From the UHGV virus genome UHGV-0221239: a stretch of 32,462 nucleotides of DNA; one strand, written 5' to 3'. The notes beneath the pieces are model-generated. The model searched no databases, had not been told where the DNA came from, and was given only the letters and a program-made list of their open reading frames with translations. Below, one piece after another: positions 1,033 through 30,021 of the stretch. The stretch comes from a virus. Within the stretch, counting starts at the first letter, position 1; every line of letters starts with the position of its first letter. A program made the translations under genes and the position numbers.

Positions 1033-4000
1033 TCAACGAATACTGATGCCGGAAGCGGCTTTTTTGGTCACAATCACCGTACAGTCGGTGATATTACCTG
1101 CCCGCTGATTGCCTTTATGGAAAACCTTAAACTCCAGAGTGACGCTTCCCCTGCCACTCGGCATATCAATAACCGCACTGTAGCTACCGGGAATGGCCCC
1201 TTTAGTTTCTCTGGATGCGATTAATACACCGTTTTTGCGAACTTCAAAACCATAACCCGTGTATCTTGTACCTCCCGGGTTATTACCACTTCCCGGATCG
1301 CTATACGCTATTCCGTTAAAGATAATGGGCGGAATAATGATTTGACGGTCAAAGTTATGATCATCGCTGATGGTGACTGTAACCGTCCCGTTTGGTGTTT
1401 CCGTATTACCCCACGTACCAGCCTGTTTCGGGAATGATTTGGATACAGCTTTAACGAAGTCACCTCTGACCTGAGTCGCCTCCAGCATGCCCTTAATCGT
1501 ACAGTTTTCATTTACCGTGACATTGTTGAGCGTCCCGGCGTTCGCATTCACACTGCCACTGATATCCGCATTTTTAGCGGTCAGCTTTCCGTCCGGAGTC
1601 AGGGAAAATGCCGGTGGATTTCCACCGCTGGTAATGGTGGGGGCCGTCAGGCGTTTCAGGAACACGTCGTTCATGAATATCTGATCGCCCTGACCAACAA
1701 ACATCGGTTTTGTGTTGCCATTCGCAGGATTAACCATCGCAATCCTGTCCGCCGCCAGCAGCACCTGACTCTGCATGCCGTCAGGGGTGTTCTCAATACC
1801 GGCACCAATACCCGCAATATAAAGGCGTCCGTCCTGCATCTGCTGCAGCTTCACAGCCCACATGCTGTTCAGGTTATTATTTGTATCAACCTGAACTTTC
1901 TGTATCTGCTGGATCGCTGCACTCTGGTCTTCCAGTTTCTTATTGACGGTCTGTGTGATTTCATTGCTGACATCCGTAATGGACGTCCTGATTTCAGCCA
2001 GGTCAGGCGCAAGCTGACCGTTATCAATCTGCGTCCACAGCTCCTGAGCCAGATGGGTTTTCCCTATCTCGCCTTTGAAAAAATCCAGATAGCCGGATGC
2101 ATCATCACTCGGCTGACCAACAGCCTCCACGAATGCCGATTTGCCAACGGTGTTCACACTGCGAACGTAAAAATAATAATCATGGCCCGGTTTGATATTG
2201 ATACTGGCGGCTATCCAGTACAGTGCCGTACCAAGATAACGCGCGCTGGTTTCAACCTGCCTGATATCCGCAATCCGTTTTTCCGAGAACCAGAACTCAA
2301 ACTGTACCGTCGGGTCATAAACCGCAAGATGCGGCGTGGCGGTTATCTGAAAATAGCCCGGCGTCAGCTCAATCCGCGACGGCGCTGCCGGTGCGGCAAT
2401 CCGGAACGATACCGACGCCGGATCGCCCTGCTGCCCCCACGCATTTACTGCCCGGACTGTCAGCCTGTAGTTCCCCAGAGCCAGTTGTGTGAAGCGGTAA
2501 GTGGTTTCCGTCGTCCGGGCCGTGCTGACCAGCCGCTCACGGCCGTCATCCGCTGCCACGGTCAGGCGAAGCAGGAAGCTCACGCCCTTCACCACCTTCG
2601 GCGTGTCCCAGCGGGCCAGCACCTGATATTCCCCGCTGTCTGCGGTGACTTCTGCGGTCAGGTGCTGCACCGCTGGCGGCGTGACACCATTTACCGTGCC
2701 GCTCTGGTCGCCGTCAAAGTGCGCCCCGTTATCCACGATGGCCTCTTTTTCCGGTACATGCTGCACGGCGGTGATGGCATACGTGCCGTCGTCGTTCTCA
2801 CGGATACTCACGCAGCGGAACAGGCGCTGGCGCAACGTCGGCAGCTTCAGCCCCCATACGCTGTATTCAGCAACGCCGTCAGGAACACGGCTCACTTTCA
2901 CCTTCACGCCGTCGGTGACGGACTGAACCTCCACGCTGACCGGACTCCCCTGCCCGTCAACCAGGCTTATCAGCGTGGTGCCGGAAGATGGCAGCGTGAT
3001 TTCACGGTCGAGCGTCAGCGTCCGGGTCTGGCTGTTTACCGCCAGCACGCGCCCGCCGGTGCGGATACCGGCATAGTCATCATCGCAGATTTCAATGACA
3101 TCCCCCGGTACATGGCGAAGCCCTTCGGCACCCACGCTGAAGTCCACGGTCTGCGTTTCCAGCAGTTCTGTTTTAATCAGCCACAGCCCGGCGCGGTGTG
3201 CCTGCCCCCGGCTGGTACAGCCAAAAGCATCCATCTTCGTGACGTTACGACCGTAACGGGCAATGGCCTGCGTGTCCTCCACAAGCTCTGTCGCCGTCTC
3301 CCAGCCGTTATTCGGGTCAATCCAGTTCACCTCAACGGCATTATGGCGGTCCTTCAGGGCGCTGAAGCTGTAGCGGAACGGCGCACCATCATCCGGCATC
3401 ACCACATTACTGCGGTTATAGGTCCACACCTTATCCGACGGTCGGTCCTGCACGAACGTCAGCGTCTGCCCGTTCCATACCGGCATACAGCGCATCGCAG
3501 AGCAGAAATCACTGAGCACATCCCACGCCTTGCGCTGTGTGGTCAGGTACGCATTACAGGTGATGCGCGGCTCCGTGCCGCCAAAACCGTCCGGCACCGA
3601 CTGATCGCAATGCTGGCCGATGACATACAGCGCCCATTTGTCCACATCCGCCGCACCAAGACGTTTCCCCATGCCGTAGCGCGGATGGGTCAGCATATCC
3701 CACAGACACCAGGCCATGTTGTTGCTGTATGCTGGCTTAAACGTTCCGTCCCAGATACCGCTGTATTGCCGCGTCTGCGGGTTATAGTTCGACGGCACCT
3801 GCAGAATGCGCCCGCGCAGATGATAATTACGGCTCACCTGCTGGCTGCCGAACTGCTCCGAGTCCACCTGCACGCCGACCAGTGCCGTGTTCGGGTAGCA
3901 CTGTTTCACATCGATGATTTCGGTGTATGACGACCAGAGCGTTTTGTTCTGCAGCTGGTCTGTGGTGCTGTCCGGCGTCATCCTGCGCATCCGGATATTA

Positions 4001-4530
4001 AACGGGCGCGGCGGCAGGTTATCCACCACCACCGAGGCCAGATACTGCGAGGTGGTTTTGCCCTTAATGGTGATGTCTTTTTCCGTCACCCAGCCACCAT
4101 TACGCTGTATCTGAACCAGCAGGCGAACTTCCGACGGATTCCGGTCCCCCTTTGAGGTGGTTTCCACCAGTGCCTGCACACCGAAGGTAAAGCGCAGTCG
4201 GTCGATGTTTGCCGACGTGATGGTGCGGGTGATCGGCGTGTCGTATTTCACTTCCGTACCCAGCACCGTCTCGGAGCCGGAGGATTCAAATCCCTCCGGC
4301 GGAGTCTGCTCCTGCTCACCAGCCCGGAACACCACCGTGACACCGGCGATGTTGGTATTCCCCTCACTGTCCAGCACCGGCGTACTGTTCAGCAGCACGC
4401 TTTTTAATCCATCCACCGGACCTTCAATCGGCCCTTCACTGATGGCATCAATCACACTCAGCAACTGCGTGGATTTCAGGTTGTCCTTCGCTTCGCGCGG
4501 GGTATGCCCCTTACTGCTGCCTTTACCCAT
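1033..4530 (-). CDS. J: Tail tip / host specificity protein J, 1165 aa
   Basis: Long ORF beginning [54 protein letters not shown]..., recalled as lambda J; position after I. Confidence 0.95.
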
Positions 4531-4590
4531 TCGTCACGCTCCATAAACGACAAAACCGCCCGCAGGCGATTTCACATAAAATGTTTTGCA

Positions 4591-5262
4591 TCAGCGACCA
4601 ATCACCACAACCTGACCACCATCCCCTTCGTCTGCCGTGCTGATCTCCTGAGAAACCACCCGTGACCCCACGCGCATTTCACCGTACAGAACAGGCAGAA
4701 CATTGCCTTGGGCAACCATGTTATCCAGTGAGGAGAAATAGGTGTTCTGCTTACCGTTATCCGTTGTCTGTGTACGGGGAGTTCTGGCTTTCGGTGCCAG
4801 CATCTGCGCCACACCACCAAGTACCATACTGGCACCGAGAGAAAACAGGATACCGGTCATACCACCGGCCCCAATGGCTGCCCCCCATGCTGCAAGGGTG
4901 GCTCCGGCAGTAAAGAATGATCCGGCAATGGCGGCAGCCCCCAGAACAATCTGGAATACGCCACCTGACTTGGCCCCGGCGACTCTGGGAACAATATGAA
5001 TCACAGCGCCATCAGGCAGAGTCTCATGTAACTGCGCCGTTAACCCGGACGTGCTGACGTCCCGCCCGGCAATCCGTACCTGATACCAGCCGTCGCTCAG
5101 TTTCTGACGAAACACCGGGAGCTGTGTGGCCAGTGCGCGGATAGCTTCAGCCCCCGTTTTCACACGAAGGTCGATGCGGCGGCCAAATCGTTGCAAATCC
5201 CCGTAAAGGCAGATGCGCGCCATGCCCGGTGACGCCAGAGGGAGTGTGTGCGTCGCTGCCAT
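4591..5262 (-). CDS. I: Tail assembly protein I, 223 aa
   Basis: ORF MAATHTLPLASPGMARICLYGDLQRFGRRIDLRV...; start overlaps the 3' end of K as in lambda. Confidence 0.9.
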   Translation of the reverse strand: MAATHTLPLASPGMARICLYGDLQRFGRRIDLRVKTGAEAIRALATQLPVFRQKLSDGWYQVRIAGRDVSTSGLTAQLHETLPDGAVIHIVPRVAGAKSGGVFQIVLGAAAIAGSFFTAGATLAAWGAAIGAGGMTGILFSLGASMVLGGVAQMLAPKARTPRTQTTDNGKQNTYFSSLDNMVAQGNVLPVLYGEMRVGSRVVSQEISTADEGDGGQVVVIGR

Positions 5263-25332: not shown

Positions 25333-25707
25333 TTAATTAGAGTTATTAACAACGATATCCATCTCTAACCGGATATCTAATGCCATTAACATCCCTTCAA
25401 TTATGCCCTCAGCCTTCTGTAACCTTTTCCCGATATAACCATCAGAGCAGCAATGCTTACCTGCCAGTGACATGAATGTCATACCGACTACATAATAATC
25501 TACTAATAAATCGTGCAAATCGCTGTTGTTCTTTTTCAGACGGGCCATGCACCCGCAAATGATCATCGCGTCATCGTCACAACATTGCGGGCGAGATTTT
25601 ACTTTTGAAGGAATTAATCCCTTAAACCAGACCGCTGATTTTGAAGATAATGACTTCAGCGGCAAACGCTCCCTGATGGAGTCTGTCGAAGCGAAGATCA
25701 AAGACAT
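25333..25707 (-). CDS. Q-like late antiterminator (QuuD-like), 124 aa from the first ATG; its first 28 codons lie inside an inverted-repeat copy
   Basis: C-terminal ...[83 protein letters not shown] with Cys clusters; position between the early genes and the porin/lysis block as for quuD. No Shine-Dalgarno precedes the ATG in this orientation. Confidence 0.5.
25624..25697. repeat. Inverted repeat, copy 1 (74 bp perfect; 87 bp with 2 mismatches), partner at 26075-26148
   Basis: The plus-strand sequence aaaccagaccgctgattttgaagataatgacttcagcggcaaacgctccctgatggagtctgtcgaagcgaaga is the exact reverse complement of 26075-26148. Confidence 0.9.
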
Positions 25708-25933
25708 TATGCCAGTGACATTTGAATTTAAATGCGTTCCGTTTGAAGGTCTGAAAGAACGTCCGTTTAAATTACGCCTCAGCATTATCACTGGCGATCG
25801 TCCTGTACTTGTTCTGCGCATTATTCAGCTGGAGGCGGTGCAGGAAGAAATGGCTAACGAATTTCGCGATCTGCTTGTTGAGAAATTCAAAGACAGCAAA
25901 GTAGAAACCTTTATTGGTACTTTCACCGCCTGA
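25624..25933 (+). pseudogene. Displaced 3' portion of the yfdQ-like gene (repeat-encoded residues plus 74 C-terminal codons), inverted relative to its 5' part
   Basis: Plus-strand frame reads [28 protein letters not shown] then [74 protein letters not shown]; the same [24 protein letters not shown] segment ends the minus-strand gene at 26016-26663. Confidence 0.6.
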
Positions 25934-26015: not shown

Positions 26016-26663
26016 TTACCAGAATTCAGTGCGGTGCAGCGCAAATAACGTGGAGAACAAAATGATGTCTTTGGTCTTCGCTTCGACAGACTCCATCAGG
26101 GAGCGTTTGCCGCTGAAGTCATTATCTTCAAAATCAGCGGTCTGGTTTGCTTCAATCGTGATTTTACGGACAGCCGCAGCCGCTTTTGTTGCCTGGATAG
26201 CGTCACCATTAGCATCAAAACCCACAAGGTAGTCGGCCCAGTCTTCAATCCATTCTGCCAGTGACTTCTGGGAGTTACGCTCGCTGTTAACAGACAACAG
26301 TGCAGAGAACGGTGCTGTCTTTTTCAGTTTGAGAGTGGCGGTGTTATCTGCGTGACCTGGTTCATCAATAGTACCCAGGTTAAGCACACTGACGGCACGC
26401 ATATTATCAGCATCGATAAAGCAGCGGGTGCCTTCATCTGCAAGATCTTTAGAATAACGGGTAAAGTCATCGATGCTGGCAGTGGAAAGCGCACCACGGA
26501 AACGGAAGCGATTTAAATTAAATTTTTCCAGATCATGAATGCGGAAATTCTCAGGCAATGCTACAGCATCGGCACCAATCTTACTGATAATTTCATTAAC
26601 ACCCTGAGCAGAAATAATAGCATGGATTTGATTAATTGCGGTTGCGTCTAAGTTCTGAGACAT
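26016..26663 (-). pseudogene. yfdQ-like (DUF2303-like) phage gene, 5' part; reading frame leaves the family-like sequence after the inverted repeat and stops 15 codons later
   Basis: [51 protein letters not shown]... with GAGGA Shine-Dalgarno; after ...SVEAKTKDI it reads [15 protein letters not shown], while the plausible continuation is on the other strand at 25698-25933. Confidence 0.6.
26075..26148. repeat. Inverted repeat, copy 2 (partner of 25624-25697)
   Basis: Exact reverse complement of 25624-25697; coordinates cross-checked against the codon positions of both ORFs. Confidence 0.9.
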
Positions 26664-26728
26664 AATAAGTCCTCACTATATAAAGATATTCAGTGATGAG
26701 ATAAATAATCAGTTAATTAAGAACGATA

Positions 26729-27091
26729 TTAATGACCTGCTGCGCGGAGTTTTCCGTCAGGTTCACCGGCAAGAGTCAGTAATTGTCCCTGGTCTTCCTG
26801 CAGAATAGTCAGGCGACCACCGCGATTGACATACATCGGCGTTTCGGTGGTGTCTTCTTCAGAAATTTTCCCGCGGTTAGTCGGGCGAACATATGAGAGT
26901 TTGTGTTTGATTTTCACTCGGTTCTCATCAAATGGTTCGATTTCCAGGTTGAGTGAGACCTTACCTTTGGTTTTCGTGTTCATCACACCGGAAGCGACTT
27001 CACTGAGAACTGCGCCGATTTTGGTTTCAAATACGCCGCCGTCCAGCTCCCCGATAAATGCCTGCACATCAGTACTGCGTTCGCTAGCCAT
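26729..27091 (-). CDS. Hypothetical phage protein, 120 aa (YfdP-like)
   Basis: Start refined to MASERSTDVQAFIGELDGGVFETKIGAVLSEVASGVMNTK... with GAGGAG 8 nt upstream; the track ORF extends 106 codons further upstream into non-coding-looking sequence. Confidence 0.7.
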   Translation of the reverse strand: MASERSTDVQAFIGELDGGVFETKIGAVLSEVASGVMNTKTKGKVSLNLEIEPFDENRVKIKHKLSYVRPTNRGKISEEDTTETPMYVNRGGRLTILQEDQGQLLTLAGEPDGKLRAAGH

Positions 27092-27139
27092 TTTGCTGCT
27101 CCTCATCATATCGACCCTGCAAGGCCGATTAGTTTCTCC

Positions 27140-27272
27140 ACAAAACAGAGAAGAACACCTGCGGTGGCAGCCGCCCGGATGGATTGAGTTATGAGCCCGT
27201 CGTCCGGTGATGCTCTTCTCTGTTTTGTAAAAAGGACGGTACCAGCCGGAAGCAAGGGTACAAGCTGGTACC
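27140..27272. other. Structured GC-rich non-coding region: 15-bp inverted repeat (27140-27154 / 27214-27228, 59-nt spacer) plus a 9-bp-stem hairpin (27238-27272)
   Basis: caaaacagagaaga ... tcttctctgttttg, and ggtaccagc-N17-gctggtacc; the hairpin loop carries gggtacaag, resembling the operator half-site GGTACAAG found at 29110-29117. Confidence 0.5.
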
Positions 27273-27492
27273 GCCAAGACTACACACAGCATAAAGTTGT
27301 GGTGCCGGGTGCCTCCCGGTGCCTGGCGAAGGTTGCACACCAGGCGGGTGGGTATCCACAGAAGGTCGACTGTCAGCCTCAACCTTAACCCGCGTGCGCT
27401 GAGCAGCATTCACCACAACGCTAAGGATTCTCTCTGGTTGAAAATACTTAGCTGTTATGTGCCTGCTTTTAGCCACATCAGGCGAGGTGGAC

Positions 27493-27544
27493 CTGGTTAT
27501 TCCCCAACAACAAGGATTCGGTTAATCTGGTTATCCCCAACAAC
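27493..27544 (+). promoter_or_regulatory. Two direct repeats (CTGGTTAT(T)CCCCAACAAC) 34 bp apart, 15-65 bp upstream of the 144-aa gene
   Basis: 27493-27512 ctggttattccccaacaaca and 27527-27544 ctggttatccccaacaac; followed by AAGGA and ATG at 27560. Confidence 0.5.
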
Positions 27545-27559
27545 GCAAAAGGAAAAGAA

Positions 27560-27994
27560 ATGTCCGGTAATATCTACACGTTGTACAAATCCCACTGTGA
27601 AAATGTTGGAAAGTATCGGGGCATTGAAATCAGTGGGGTAGTGTCATCAGTCGAAATAAGCAAAGTGGAATCAAGGGCAACATTACTTACTCTTCTGGAT
27701 CTTGTCTTACATGAGCACCGGAAGAAATTCGGCACTCCCTATAATCAGTTGAATGGGAAAAAGGCTCTGGTTCACCTTATTCTGATGAAGCATCACTGGA
27801 TGCCAAAACAGATTAATGAGATGAAATTTGATGAACTTCTTCTTTCAATTCAGGATGAACTCACACTTGATAAAATAAGCGTAACCGCCCAGAAATTTTT
27901 AGATTATCGAGACTGGAGATCACAAATTCATCACTTTGATGATTTTGACGAAAATGAATGGGATCCTAATTTGTCTGCACAATATCTAAAGTAA
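27560..27994 (+). CDS. Hypothetical protein, 144 aa, no family recognised
   Basis: ORF MSGNIYTLYKSHCENVGKYRGIEISGVVSSVEISKVESRATLLTLLDLVL... with AAGGA Shine-Dalgarno at -6; AT-rich codon usage; 3' end overlaps the convergent 68-aa gene by about 29 bp. Confidence 0.65.
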   Translation: MSGNIYTLYKSHCENVGKYRGIEISGVVSSVEISKVESRATLLTLLDLVLHEHRKKFGTPYNQLNGKKALVHLILMKHHWMPKQINEMKFDELLLSIQDELTLDKISVTAQKFLDYRDWRSQIHHFDDFDENEWDPNLSAQYLK

Positions 27995-28172
27995 CATCCT
28001 GTGATAAAACCGTGATTTCCTGATCCAGTTTTTTTAAGGAGTCTATTGTTTCCTGTCGATAAGACAGCACTTCACGAAGCTGGTTTATAGCTGCCAGCTT
28101 CTTTGCCATCCACTCGTAAATTTCCTCATTTGTGTATCCGGGCGCGACGATTTTGGGTTCTGTTTTGTGCAT
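27966..28172 (-). CDS. Small hypothetical coiled-coil protein, 68 aa, downstream of the repressor gene
   Basis: Refined start MHKTEPKIVAPGYTNEEIYEWMAKKLAAINQLREVLSYRQETIDSLKKLDQEI... with GGAGG 8 nt upstream (the track ORF begins at a TTG 5 codons earlier). Confidence 0.6.
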   Translation of the reverse strand: MHKTEPKIVAPGYTNEEIYEWMAKKLAAINQLREVLSYRQETIDSLKKLDQEITVLSQDVTLDIVQTN

Positions 28173-28406
28173 TTCACACCTCCTCAAGTTATCAGTTACT
28201 TGTTGATGGGGACCAGATTGTTAAAGAGCTAAGCGTCCTGTAGGGCGCTTTTTTGTTGCTAACGAATCATCCTGGACTTCATATGCCCCAGGCGGCTACT
28301 TCGTGGGCGTCCTGCCTGTTTGTTGTTTCTCTTAGGTACATTATGTATCTCAAGGGTACATTGTCAAGTATAAAAAAACCTGCCGAAGCAGGTTCATAAA
28401 CATTGA

Positions 28407-29081
28407 TTAGGCTTTGATTTTGTATCTTCTTGGTTTTCCTGAGAAAATCACAGTTCCAATTATAGAGCAATTACCGTTGATCTTAATGTAAGGCTCAGGC
28501 CAGTTTGGGTTTAACGCTTTGAGATAACGCTGTGTCCCATCTTCTATCAACCTTTTGAAGGTGGTTTCACCTGTATCGTGCATCAATGCAATAACGTCGT
28601 CACCGTGGCAGGCAGGTACTTCAGGATCGACAAAAATCATGTCTCCCGGGCGGTACTCATCAATCATTGAATCACCTATCACCCGCAAGATATAAGTCAT
28701 TTCCCCACAGGGTACAGGGCAGGGATACGTTTCTGCTGTGCTCAAATCAACCTCAGAATATCCAACTTCTTTCCATGCTCCGGCCTGTACCCATGATATG
28801 ACAGGGACTAATGTGATTTGTTTATTAGTGATTGAAAAATCAGGTTTTTTTGTGATGTTCGTTGTCTGGTGTTCTTGATCGAGCCATCCGACAGGCAGGT
28901 CGAAACATTTTTCGATGTGTCGTGCCATGTTGTCACCGATATTTTTAGTAGCACCATCTCCCATAAACCTGCTGGTCTGGGTTGGCTCGCGATCAATCAT
29001 AGTGGCAAAGGAAGAATTCCCGCCAACACCATCTCTCAGTTTTCTGGCGTTAGACCGCCGGATGTCATGGATTGTTTTCAT
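28407..29081 (-). CDS. cI: CI-like prophage repressor with C-terminal S24 (LexA-like) peptidase domain, 224 aa
   Basis: ORF MKTIHDIRRSNARKLRDGVGG... with N-terminal HTH and C-terminal ...VISWVQAGAW...LRVIGDSMIDEYRPGDMIFVDPE...GDDVIAL...TTFKRL... autocleavage-domain pattern; divergent from a Cro-like gene across palindromic operators. Confidence 0.85.
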   Translation of the reverse strand: MKTIHDIRRSNARKLRDGVGGNSSFATMIDREPTQTSRFMGDGATKNIGDNMARHIEKCFDLPVGWLDQEHQTTNITKKPDFSITNKQITLVPVISWVQAGAWKEVGYSEVDLSTAETYPCPVPCGEMTYILRVIGDSMIDEYRPGDMIFVDPEVPACHGDDVIALMHDTGETTFKRLIEDGTQRYLKALNPNWPEPYIKINGNCSIIGTVIFSGKPRRYKIKA

Positions 29082-29096
29082 AACGAAATTAAAACC

Positions 29097-29117
29097 CTTG
29101 TACCGTTAAGGTACAAG
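29097..29117. promoter_or_regulatory. Operator palindrome on the repressor-promoter side (CTTGTACC-GTTAA-GGTACAAG)
   Basis: Perfect 8-bp half-sites with TGTAC-N7-GTACA spacing, 16 bp upstream of the cI start codon. Confidence 0.6.
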
Positions 29118-29145
29118 TATCTTGAAGGTTCATTTCAATCATGTA

Positions 29146-29168
29146 ATATGTACACCGGAGGTACATAT
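29146..29168. promoter_or_regulatory. Operator palindrome on the cro-promoter side (ATATGTAC-ACCGGAG-GTACATAT), overlapping a candidate -10
   Basis: Same TGTAC-N7-GTACA geometry; candidate promoter TTGAAG (29122-29127), 16-nt spacer, TAATAT (29144-29149) reading toward cro. Confidence 0.6.
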
Positions 29169-29171
29169 TGT

Positions 29172-29372
29172 ATGAAAGCGTATTGGGACTCTTTAACCAA
29201 AGAACAGCAGGGCGAGTTGGCCGGAAAAGTTGGCTCAACACCTGGCTACTTACGGCTGGTTTTCAATGGCTATAAAAAAGCCAGTTTTGTGCTGGCTAAA
29301 AAACTTGAGCAATGCACGTCAGGTGCAATTACGAAATCTGACTTAAGACCGGATATCTATCCGAAAGATTAG
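29172..29372 (+). CDS. cro: Cro-like small DNA-binding protein, 66 aa
   Basis: Refined [69 protein letters not shown], divergent from cI, GGAGG upstream. The track ORF 28869-29372 begins far upstream inside the operator region. Confidence 0.7.
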
Positions 29373-29508
29373 CAGAACACTTTCAATTTTTAACCACAGA
29401 ACGATGAGGCTAATCGTGGGTATCTGGGGCGACACCGTTGTTGAGTGTGTGCTTAACAAACTCTGCCCGTCGCATACCTACGTAATTTTTAAATATCCGG
29501 AGTAATCC

Positions 29509-30021
29509 ATGCATCGTATAGACACGAAAACCGCGCAGAAGGATAAGTTCGGCGCGGGTAAGAACGGTTTTACCCGTGGTAACCCCCAGACCGGCACACC
29601 TGCCACCGATCTGGATGATGACTACTTTGACATGTTGCAGGAGGAGCTTTGCAGCGTGGTGGAGGCATCCGGTGCCAGCCTGGAGAAGGGGCGGCACGAC
29701 CAGTTGCTTACCGCGCTTCGTGCGCTGCTGTTAAGCCGCAAGAATCCGTTTGGCGATATCAAATCGGATGGCACGGTGAAAACGGCTCTCGAAAACCTTG
29801 GTTTGGGAGAAGGTTCTGCATTACCTGTTGGGGTGCCTGTTCCGTGGCCTTCAGCCACTCCGCCAACAGGCTGGCTGAAATGCAACGGTGCGCCTTTTTC
29901 TGCCGAAGAGTATCCGGAACTGGCAAAAGTTTACCTGACAAATAAATTGCCTGATTTACGCGGTGAGTTAATTATAAACGGTTATGTCTCCAGCTTTTAT
30001 GGCAATGAGTTCGTTATTTAA
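29509..30021 (+). pseudogene. Tail-fibre gene, constant N-terminal part (about 153 codons), terminated 17 codons after the constant/variable junction in this orientation
   Basis: [77 protein letters not shown]...[44 protein letters not shown] then [17 protein letters not shown]; the PWPS...LPDLRGE block resembles the Stf constant/variable junction; GGAG at -7. Confidence 0.7.
29938..29969. repeat. Inverted repeat alpha, copy 1 (32 bp, encodes [10 protein letters not shown] at the tail-fibre junction); partner at 30325-30356
   Basis: acaaataaattgcctgatttacgcggtgagtt is the exact reverse complement of 30325-30356. Confidence 0.9.

Follow-up and report, generated by a model that had tools for sequence, protein, structure and literature searches.

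A probable cargo cassette holding a convergent ECs1072-family and YdfC-like gene pair downstream of PL in an e14/SfV-type lambdoid prophage

What is a pair of small, convergent genes doing beside the repressor gene of a lambdoid prophage? In the virus genome UHGV-0221239, whose 32,462 nucleotides are referred to here as the window, a plus-strand gene for a 144-amino-acid (aa) protein and a minus-strand gene for a 68-aa protein run into each other close to a cI-type repressor gene (Table 1). The original prediction, made from the nucleotide sequence, described a convergent pair with 3′ ends overlapping by about 29 bp and likened it to lysogen-expressed immunity genes such as rexAB and sieB. The geometry was confirmed, and the pair is indeed an accessory cargo locus adjoining the repressor gene, both proteins being uncharacterised; the comparison with rexAB fared less well. 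Judged on architecture alone, the region is very probably a self-contained, horizontally exchanged cargo cassette that sits directly downstream of the early-left promoter PL in an e14/SfV-type lambdoid prophage. What the cassette does is a more tentative matter, for which we propose a lysogeny-phase role of the 144-aa gene.

The cassette is delimited by sharp homology breaks at 27490 and 28258/28261, seen against SfV, SfII, mEp460, PhiR29_1, Kati and e14. Other phages carry other cargo in the same slot: e14 has ymfI on the plus and ymfJ on the minus strand with a 63-bp overlap, SfV has an 81-aa plus-strand open reading frame (ORF) overlapping orf33 on the minus strand, PhiR29_1 has a plus-strand gene for a coiled-coil/zinc-ribbon protein, and mEp460 has a minus-strand HTH_17 gene. 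The last of these gave the sole PADLOC match among the alternative cargo, a weak one to mad1 (E 5.9e-5). To the right of the slot, e14 of E. coli K-12 matches positions 28258-29422 (PL, cI = ymfK, cro = ymfT) at 98.5% identity. The cassette locus has its allelic counterpart in ymfI/ymfJ, which lie between ymfK/cohE and ymfH/xisE: repressor, operators, PL and slot boundaries are the same, and in both cases a plus-strand gene and a PL-proximal minus-strand gene converge and overlap. The cargo proteins, in contrast, are unrelated, and e14 has neither the BoxA nor the plus-strand terminator hairpin described below. YmfI and YmfJ were considered as homologues of the pair and rejected, with an hhalign probability below 1% for both. 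A cargo slot of e14/SfV-type prophages, including ymfI/ymfJ of K-12 e14, is now defined.

Table 1. Positions of the genes and signals in and around the cassette, numbered from the first nucleotide of the window
Feature	Position	Strand	Remarks
Variable accessory cassette holding both genes	27491-28257		767 bp; G+C content (GC) 34-42% vs 48-58% in flanks
144-aa gene	27560-27994	+	ATG start; ECs1072 family (NF033230, phrog_5286); faces against early-left operon
68-aa gene	27966-28172	-	ATG start; YdfC-like (phrog_1744); first ORF after PL
Overlap of the two 3′ ends	27966-27994		29 bp
Direct repeats CTGGTTAT(T)CCCCAACAAC	27493-27511, 27527-27544	+	Leader of 144-aa gene
Intrinsic terminator of 144-aa gene	28231-28257	+	8-bp stem with G-U pairs (hairpin 28231-28250), then UUUUUUGUU
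BoxA GCTCTTTAACA	28219-28229	-	PL leader, 46 nt 5′ of the 68-aa ATG, directly after hairpin
PL promoter TTGACA-16-CATAAT	28367-28340 (with operators 28322-28367)	-	11/12 sigma-70 match
Intrinsic terminator of cI	28395-28376	-	Same terminator annotated in SfV and SfII
cI-type S24 repressor (YmfK/CohE type)	28407-29081	-	Peptidase_S24 match
STnc100-like small RNA (sRNA) element with terminator	27226-27449	-	41.9 bits (gathering score 47), E 5e-7; conserved left flank
YfdP-like ORF	26729-27091	-	phrog_204; equivalent gene called yfdP by the annotation pipeline PGAP

Classical phage morons have their own promoter and terminator, an atypical GC, and a presence/absence pattern among relatives. The 144-aa gene resembles them in having its own terminator and a low GC and in being swapped in sister phages; the atypical GC and the presence/absence among close relatives apply here as well. 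It differs in that no clear promoter was found and in that it lies antisense in an operon, with a specific convergent partner. In five cargo alleles, the first gene is on the plus strand and has its ribosome-binding site 35-70 nt away from the left boundary, which suggests that the start of plus-strand transcription is within the conserved flank or close to it. The direct repeats that had been noticed upstream of the 144-aa gene are real and are preserved in 79 copies of the cassette; between the repeats is TAATCT, a weak -10-like sequence (27523-27528). In PhiR29_1 (locus L003, 2594-2645 and 3198-3245), the same direct-repeat leader and the same terminator/BoxA flank enclose a different plus-strand cargo gene and no YdfC-like ORF, a layout which suggests cargo exchange inside a conserved expression frame.

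Comparative sequence evidence confirmed that both ORFs are real genes rather than chance ORFs. The 68-aa ORF is preceded by the Shine-Dalgarno motif GAGGAGG (28179-28185, minus strand), 6 nt 5′ of its ATG, and would be 73 aa long if an upstream TTG were the start. RefSeq entries annotated by PGAP in E. coli genomes cover both products, as the 144-aa “ECs1072 family phage-associated protein” WP_000016389.1 and the “hypothetical protein” WP_000549626.1 for the 68-aa product. Shigella phage SfIV is 98.8% identical across the region; the 144-aa ORF is annotated there as SfIV_36, and the 68-aa ORF is unannotated. The SfIV paper lists orf35/36 as unique proteins with unknown function (PMC3851460), and functional data on YdfC, ECs1072 or SfIV orfs 35/36 were not found in our literature search. 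A first scan of viral sequences returned identical copies only. Each half is found at ≥95% identity in ~420 of the 5426 complete E. coli genomes covered; the cassette is present in ~8% of them, and relatives occur across Enterobacterales phages.

According to the original prediction, neither protein matched a recognised family. That claim was not supported, as both belong to named, although uncharacterised, families: NF033230 (ECs1072) for the 144-aa protein and YdfC/phrog_1744 for the 68-aa protein. The 144-aa protein matches the NF033230 hidden Markov model at full length and well above threshold (157.8 bits versus a curated cutoff of 70; residues 4-144 against profile positions 2-142 of 142), in agreement with the PGAP name, and also matches phrog_5286. 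A profile search of 1.84 billion representatives returned 76 clusters at 50% identity, of which 46 reached E 1e-10 or better. Members of full length have ~145-155 aa, and their source organisms, where named, are Enterobacterales species. In an alignment of 50 full-length members, Trp134 in the EWDP motif is invariant, and R54, L64, G66, A69 and H72 are nearly so. AlphaFold2 predicts an all-helical protein with a predicted local distance difference test score (pLDDT) of 94 and a predicted template modelling score (pTM) of 0.88. The best Foldseek match of this model in the PDB had an E of 1.6 and is not significant, a fold search of BFVD gave nothing at E 0.001 or better, and Pfam and PDB sequence searches with the protein and the 50-member alignment found no relatives; PADLOC searches with both were likewise fruitless. 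The 144-aa fold is confidently predicted yet stands without a structural relative.

The 68-aa protein matches phrog_1744 over its full length (1-68 of 68, E 4.8e-34) and, by tblastn, the annotated ydfC genes of lambdoid phages at 38-39% identity over 66 aa (E 1e-8), which places it in the YdfC family by full-length similarity. The 68-aa protein, YdfC and the longer sb50-like proteins have in common the N-terminal motif EPxxxxPxYTxEExxEW, in which the Trp is invariant, and a long helix after it; a comparison of the YdfC/68-aa profile with the sb50-like profile by hhalign gave a probability of 79% (E 1.6e-5). The protein had been described as a coiled coil. A single-sequence AlphaFold2 model consists of one helix spanning residues 15-67 (pLDDT 89), which fits a coiled coil without proving one. 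Pfam, PADLOC and PDB sequence searches with the 68-aa protein gave nothing useful.

The predicted PL is the strongest promoter match in the region, scoring 12.7 versus ≤5 for any plus-strand candidate. Two copies of a 20-nt operator repeat overlap it and two more lie in the cI-cro intergenic region (OR), and we read promoter and repeats together as PL/OL. Since the cI terminator and PL both intervene, the 68-aa gene is the first gene of the repressed early-left operon, the position of N, rather than a promoter-distal member of the cI operon. As such, it should be off in the lysogen, where expression would be plausible for the 144-aa gene alone. Further along the minus strand, the PL transcript traverses the cassette, meets the STnc100-like element and then has the YfdP-like ORF and a DUF2303/YfdQ gene downstream.

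This arrangement bears directly on the suggestion that both genes are lysogen-expressed immunity-region genes of the rexAB/sieB kind which jointly confer superinfection exclusion or abortive infection. Like lambda rexAB and the sieB genes of lambda and P22, which can act in the lysogen, the pair consists of accessory genes near the immunity region: it adjoins cI, the 68-aa gene shares the cI strand, and the region is low in GC and variable among related phages, with both proteins uncharacterised. An intrinsic terminator and an operator-controlled promoter nevertheless separate cI from the 68-aa gene, which is therefore not in the rexAB position and not co-transcribed with the repressor gene. 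The positionally equivalent e14 gene is SOS-induced and not constitutive: ymfJ, the first e14 gene after PL, is induced late in the SOS response with a log2 fold change of 4-4.8, and the opposing ymfI changes little (PMC11002266). Searches of Pfam, NCBIfam and PADLOC revealed no Rex or Sie similarity and no PADLOC model match, nor is there any similarity in fold. RexB and SieB are membrane proteins, whereas the two proteins here are predicted to be helical with no apparent membrane segment. We consider this explanation highly unlikely. P22 sieB is itself controlled by antisense RNA.

The minus-strand half of the locus has a parallel in the dicBF operon of Qin (ydfA-ydfB-ydfC-dicF-dicB). There, ydfC is promoter-proximal in the DicA-repressed operon and precedes DicF (PMC5069750). 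The 68-aa gene is likewise promoter-proximal in a repressor-controlled early-left operon and lies 5′ of an sRNA element of the DicF/STnc100 type. The Qin-type phage vB_EcoS-813R8 has both DicF and an STnc100-like element after ydfC, and the window has the STnc100-like one. Qin differs in having no ECs1072-like gene between ydfC and the sRNA, and the identity to YdfC is only 38%.

The STnc100-like element of the window has a DicF-like terminator part. The N-terminal extension of SfIV_34, SfIV_35 and K-12 “ymfH” are probably annotations laid over the RNA element and not coding sequence. Of 20 sampled relatives, 16 have a bona fide STnc100 (65-109 bits), which in 13 cases diverges from the ECs1072-like gene and is located ~120-330 nt 5′ of it; the window is arranged alike.

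The right edge of the cassette holds two signals. The terminator hairpin of the 144-aa gene has a centroid energy of -11.5 kcal/mol on the plus strand and -3.3 on the minus strand, where there is no U-tract; it is weak on the minus strand because its G-U pairs turn into C-A mismatches. As shown by these folding predictions, a PL transcript should not be stopped at this terminator and would be antisense to the entire 144-aa gene. Conversely, the terminator lies beyond the start of the 68-aa gene, so that the 144-aa mRNA would run antisense across the full 68-aa ORF together with its ribosome-binding site. ST64B (L007, 3324-3344, plus strand) and Serratia (L099, 4479-4501, plus strand) have the corresponding terminator within the coding sequence of the partner. 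In ST64B, the terminator stem falls within the conserved “EKAALEERL”, the conservation of which may partly reflect the hairpin on the opposite strand.

The second signal is a BoxA in the PL leader, a perfect match to the gamma-proteobacterial consensus GYTCTTTAANA (PMC5725501). No second copy occurs in the window, for which 0.08 matches would be expected when at most one mismatch is allowed. BoxA is also present in PhiR29_1, which has the same flank, and L094 has a match at the same relative position; it is missing from e14 and SfV, even though their PL is the same. As in the BoxA antitermination systems of rrn operons and lambdoid nut sites, this phage early leader has a perfect BoxA beside a hairpin. 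The order of hairpin and then BoxA is that of rrn leaders and not of lambda, and the PL leader of the window has this order. The window differs from nut systems in having no N-like arginine-rich protein, and the BoxA is a functional candidate by its sequence.

Given this leader, the 68-aa protein might be an N-like antiterminator and the 144-aa gene an unrelated passenger. N proteins of different lambdoid phages are non-homologous occupants of the first position after PL, which the 68-aa gene fills here; it follows a hairpin and a perfect BoxA, and terminators lie downstream in the STnc100-like element. The 68-aa N-terminus, however, MHKTEPKIVAPGYTNEE, contains no arginine cluster and hence no arginine-rich motif. 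In addition, the BoxA is borne by the cassette and absent in e14 and SfV, although these share PL and the downstream operon with the window; the PL-strand hairpin is weak, and YdfC homologues also occur after PR' and within a P2-like early operon. An N-like function is therefore very improbable.

Do the two genes form a unit? Convergent pairs of the same two families are found in quite different settings. In ST64B and the Klebsiella phage KPP5665-2, the pair lies between Q and holin, with the ECs1072-like gene antisense to the late genes, in a Pantoea P2-like prophage it is inside the Cox-to-GpA early operon, and Providencia, Serratia and Photorhabdus genomes also carry it. All 80 ST64B-clade loci in IMG/VR (25 distinct proteins) have both genes, overlapping by 71-95 nt in 77 of the loci and non-overlapping in three. 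In every phage locus with called or annotated neighbours, the ECs1072-like gene is antisense to the flanking genes. Taken together, sequence comparisons indicate an association which is strong but not obligatory.

In late-region (Q-to-holin) forms of the module (L134, L154, L162, L180, L186, L187, L192, L202 and others), the YdfC-like gene is closely preceded by tRNA genes (~3681-3753, minus strand), as in the late regions of Stx phages.

The genes might make up an obligate two-component system in which an ECs1072-like effector or toxin is opposed by a YdfC-like direct antagonist or partner, the overlap ensuring joint inheritance. In four or more contexts, both genes have been kept together in a fixed convergent geometry although identity has dropped to 14-30%, the ST64B-clade loci invariably have both members, and the 68-aa/YdfC profile matches that of the sb50-like proteins. 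On the other hand, either family is found without the other, and a convergent orientation is atypical of protein toxin-antitoxin pairs; with the genes convergent and no toxin-antitoxin domains found, the pair does not have the makings of a type II system. TGG-NNN-CCA encodes W-x-P on either strand, so both partners show W-x-P over the same 9 nt, as observed in the overlap regions of L007, L008, L096, L097 and L115. The WxP tail of the longer YdfC-like proteins sits on codons complementary to the ECs1072 Trp-x-Pro (EWDP in the window) and is probably a by-product, because the ECs1072 Trp is invariant even without a partner. The 68-aa version of the window ends just short of this tail. An obligate two-component system is accordingly unlikely.

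At the other extreme, the overlap may have no regulatory meaning and simply reflect compaction, two small cargo genes that are independent of each other having been packed into a recombination hotspot. Unrelated pairs with the same geometry in the same slot (ymfI/ymfJ of e14, the 81-aa ORF and orf33 of SfV) would fit this, as would the three non-overlapping ST64B-clade pairs and L095, where the partner is truncated and non-overlapping. The pair and its orientation nevertheless persist across different phage modules, and in three lineages the ECs1072-like terminator lies inside or beyond the partner ORF, so that antisense overlap of the transcripts is built in. We therefore regard mere compaction as distinctly unlikely.

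The explanation that we favour builds on this transcript geometry. In the lysogen, PL would be off and the 144-aa gene expressed as a moron from a weak or unidentified promoter. A signal for ECs1072 of strain Sakai was detected in uninduced cultures (PMC2241611), which is the sole expression hint and which we count, by analogy, in favour of lysogen expression of the 144-aa gene. Upon induction, transcription from PL would yield the YdfC-like protein, and transcriptional collision and antisense pairing would silence the 144-aa gene; the YdfC-like protein may also antagonise the 144-aa protein. After the stop codon of the 68-aa gene, the PL transcript has ~870 nt without an ORF before yfdP (27966 to 27092). 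BoxA would recruit Nus factors, which would let the transcript survive Rho over this untranslated RNA and reach yfdP/yfdQ/xis/int; protection of this kind can reasonably be inferred. A 144-aa protein silenced in this way during the phage's own lytic growth would most likely serve anti-phage exclusion or another lysogeny-only host function, the simplest reading being an activity, such as exclusion or abortive infection, that would be harmful to that growth. That the 144-aa gene is a lysogeny-phase effector turned off at induction is, by itself, a tentative proposal that we rate as possible though somewhat doubtful; for the statement as a whole, architecture and lysogeny-phase function together, we consider the balance to be even.

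Several observations weigh against the lysogeny-phase proposal. No convincing sigma-70 promoter was found 5′ of the 144-aa gene, where the best plus-strand candidate scores ~5; in ST64B-clade relatives, a TGnTAAAAT extended -10 can be read by eye upstream. PADLOC had no match for either protein, and no structural analogue in the PDB or BFVD hints at an activity of the 144-aa protein. Across 39 unique copies of the cassette, 13 non-synonymous and 10 synonymous changes were counted in the 68-aa ORF, which points to only mild purifying selection; the corresponding ratio for the 144-aa ORF (0:21) is biased because the loci were picked for 100% protein identity. The ECs1072-like gene has no YdfC-like partner in L091 and L094 or in ~15 chromosomal loci of Kosakonia, Erwinia, Pantoea and relatives, and YdfC occurs without an ECs1072-like gene in Qin-type operons. 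Stand-alone YdfC implies that coupling at the protein level is not obligatory. In late-region contexts, the YdfC-like gene may be constitutively transcribed from PR', which would weaken a strict on/off logic. Finally, a BoxA close to the start codon can have a repressive effect instead, as it does in suhB (PMC5725501).

In the chromosomal loci L103-L113, L118 and L119 (Kosakonia, Enterobacter and relatives), the partnerless gene is followed by another convergent gene at ~4497-4740 (minus strand). It encodes ~73-81 aa (MSKIVVVL.PGG...ETYYCEGEEFYFARVE) and has no Pfam or PADLOC match.

A wider generalisation would be that the ECs1072-like gene, the convergent YdfC-like gene and an STnc100-type sRNA form a mobile module that inserts downstream of strong lytic promoters (PL, PR' and P2 Pe), with ECs1072 as a lysogeny-phase anti-phage or host-modulating effector that is shut off at induction by antisense transcription and the YdfC-like protein. 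We put this forward as speculation that is rather unlikely to hold in full; if true, it would represent the self-immunity switch of a new defence family carried by ~8% of E. coli genomes. No description of an ECs1072/YdfC-like/STnc100 module or of this BoxA was found in the literature. Two widespread “dark” families gain a context, and the locus offers a testable regulatory logic in which cargo is set against an early operon, a strand-specific terminator would let the opposing transcript pass and BoxA would provide for read-through. Should the 144-aa protein prove to be an effector confined to lysogeny, it would found a new prophage host-protection family and give YdfC its first functional context; if not, the locus is an ordinary moron pair.

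Two further observations concern the surroundings of the cassette. Directly after cro (29172-29372), the window continues with a tail-fibre gene (29509 onward), tail-fibre assembly genes and a recombinase. This cro/tail-fibre junction (~29420-29510) was found in none of the 5426 complete E. coli genomes, and in E. coli AST240, the cro and tail-fibre segments lie ~28 kb apart. The immunity fragment 26062-29422 therefore seems to be what is left of a prophage after rearrangement or deletion. On the other side, an 87-nt inverted repeat with 98% complementarity (25624-25710 and 26062-26148) splits the DUF2303/YfdQ gene into an N-terminal part on the minus strand (26016-26663) and a C-terminal part on the plus strand (25526-25933), and the split has the appearance of a junction formed by inversion or recombination of two prophage copies.

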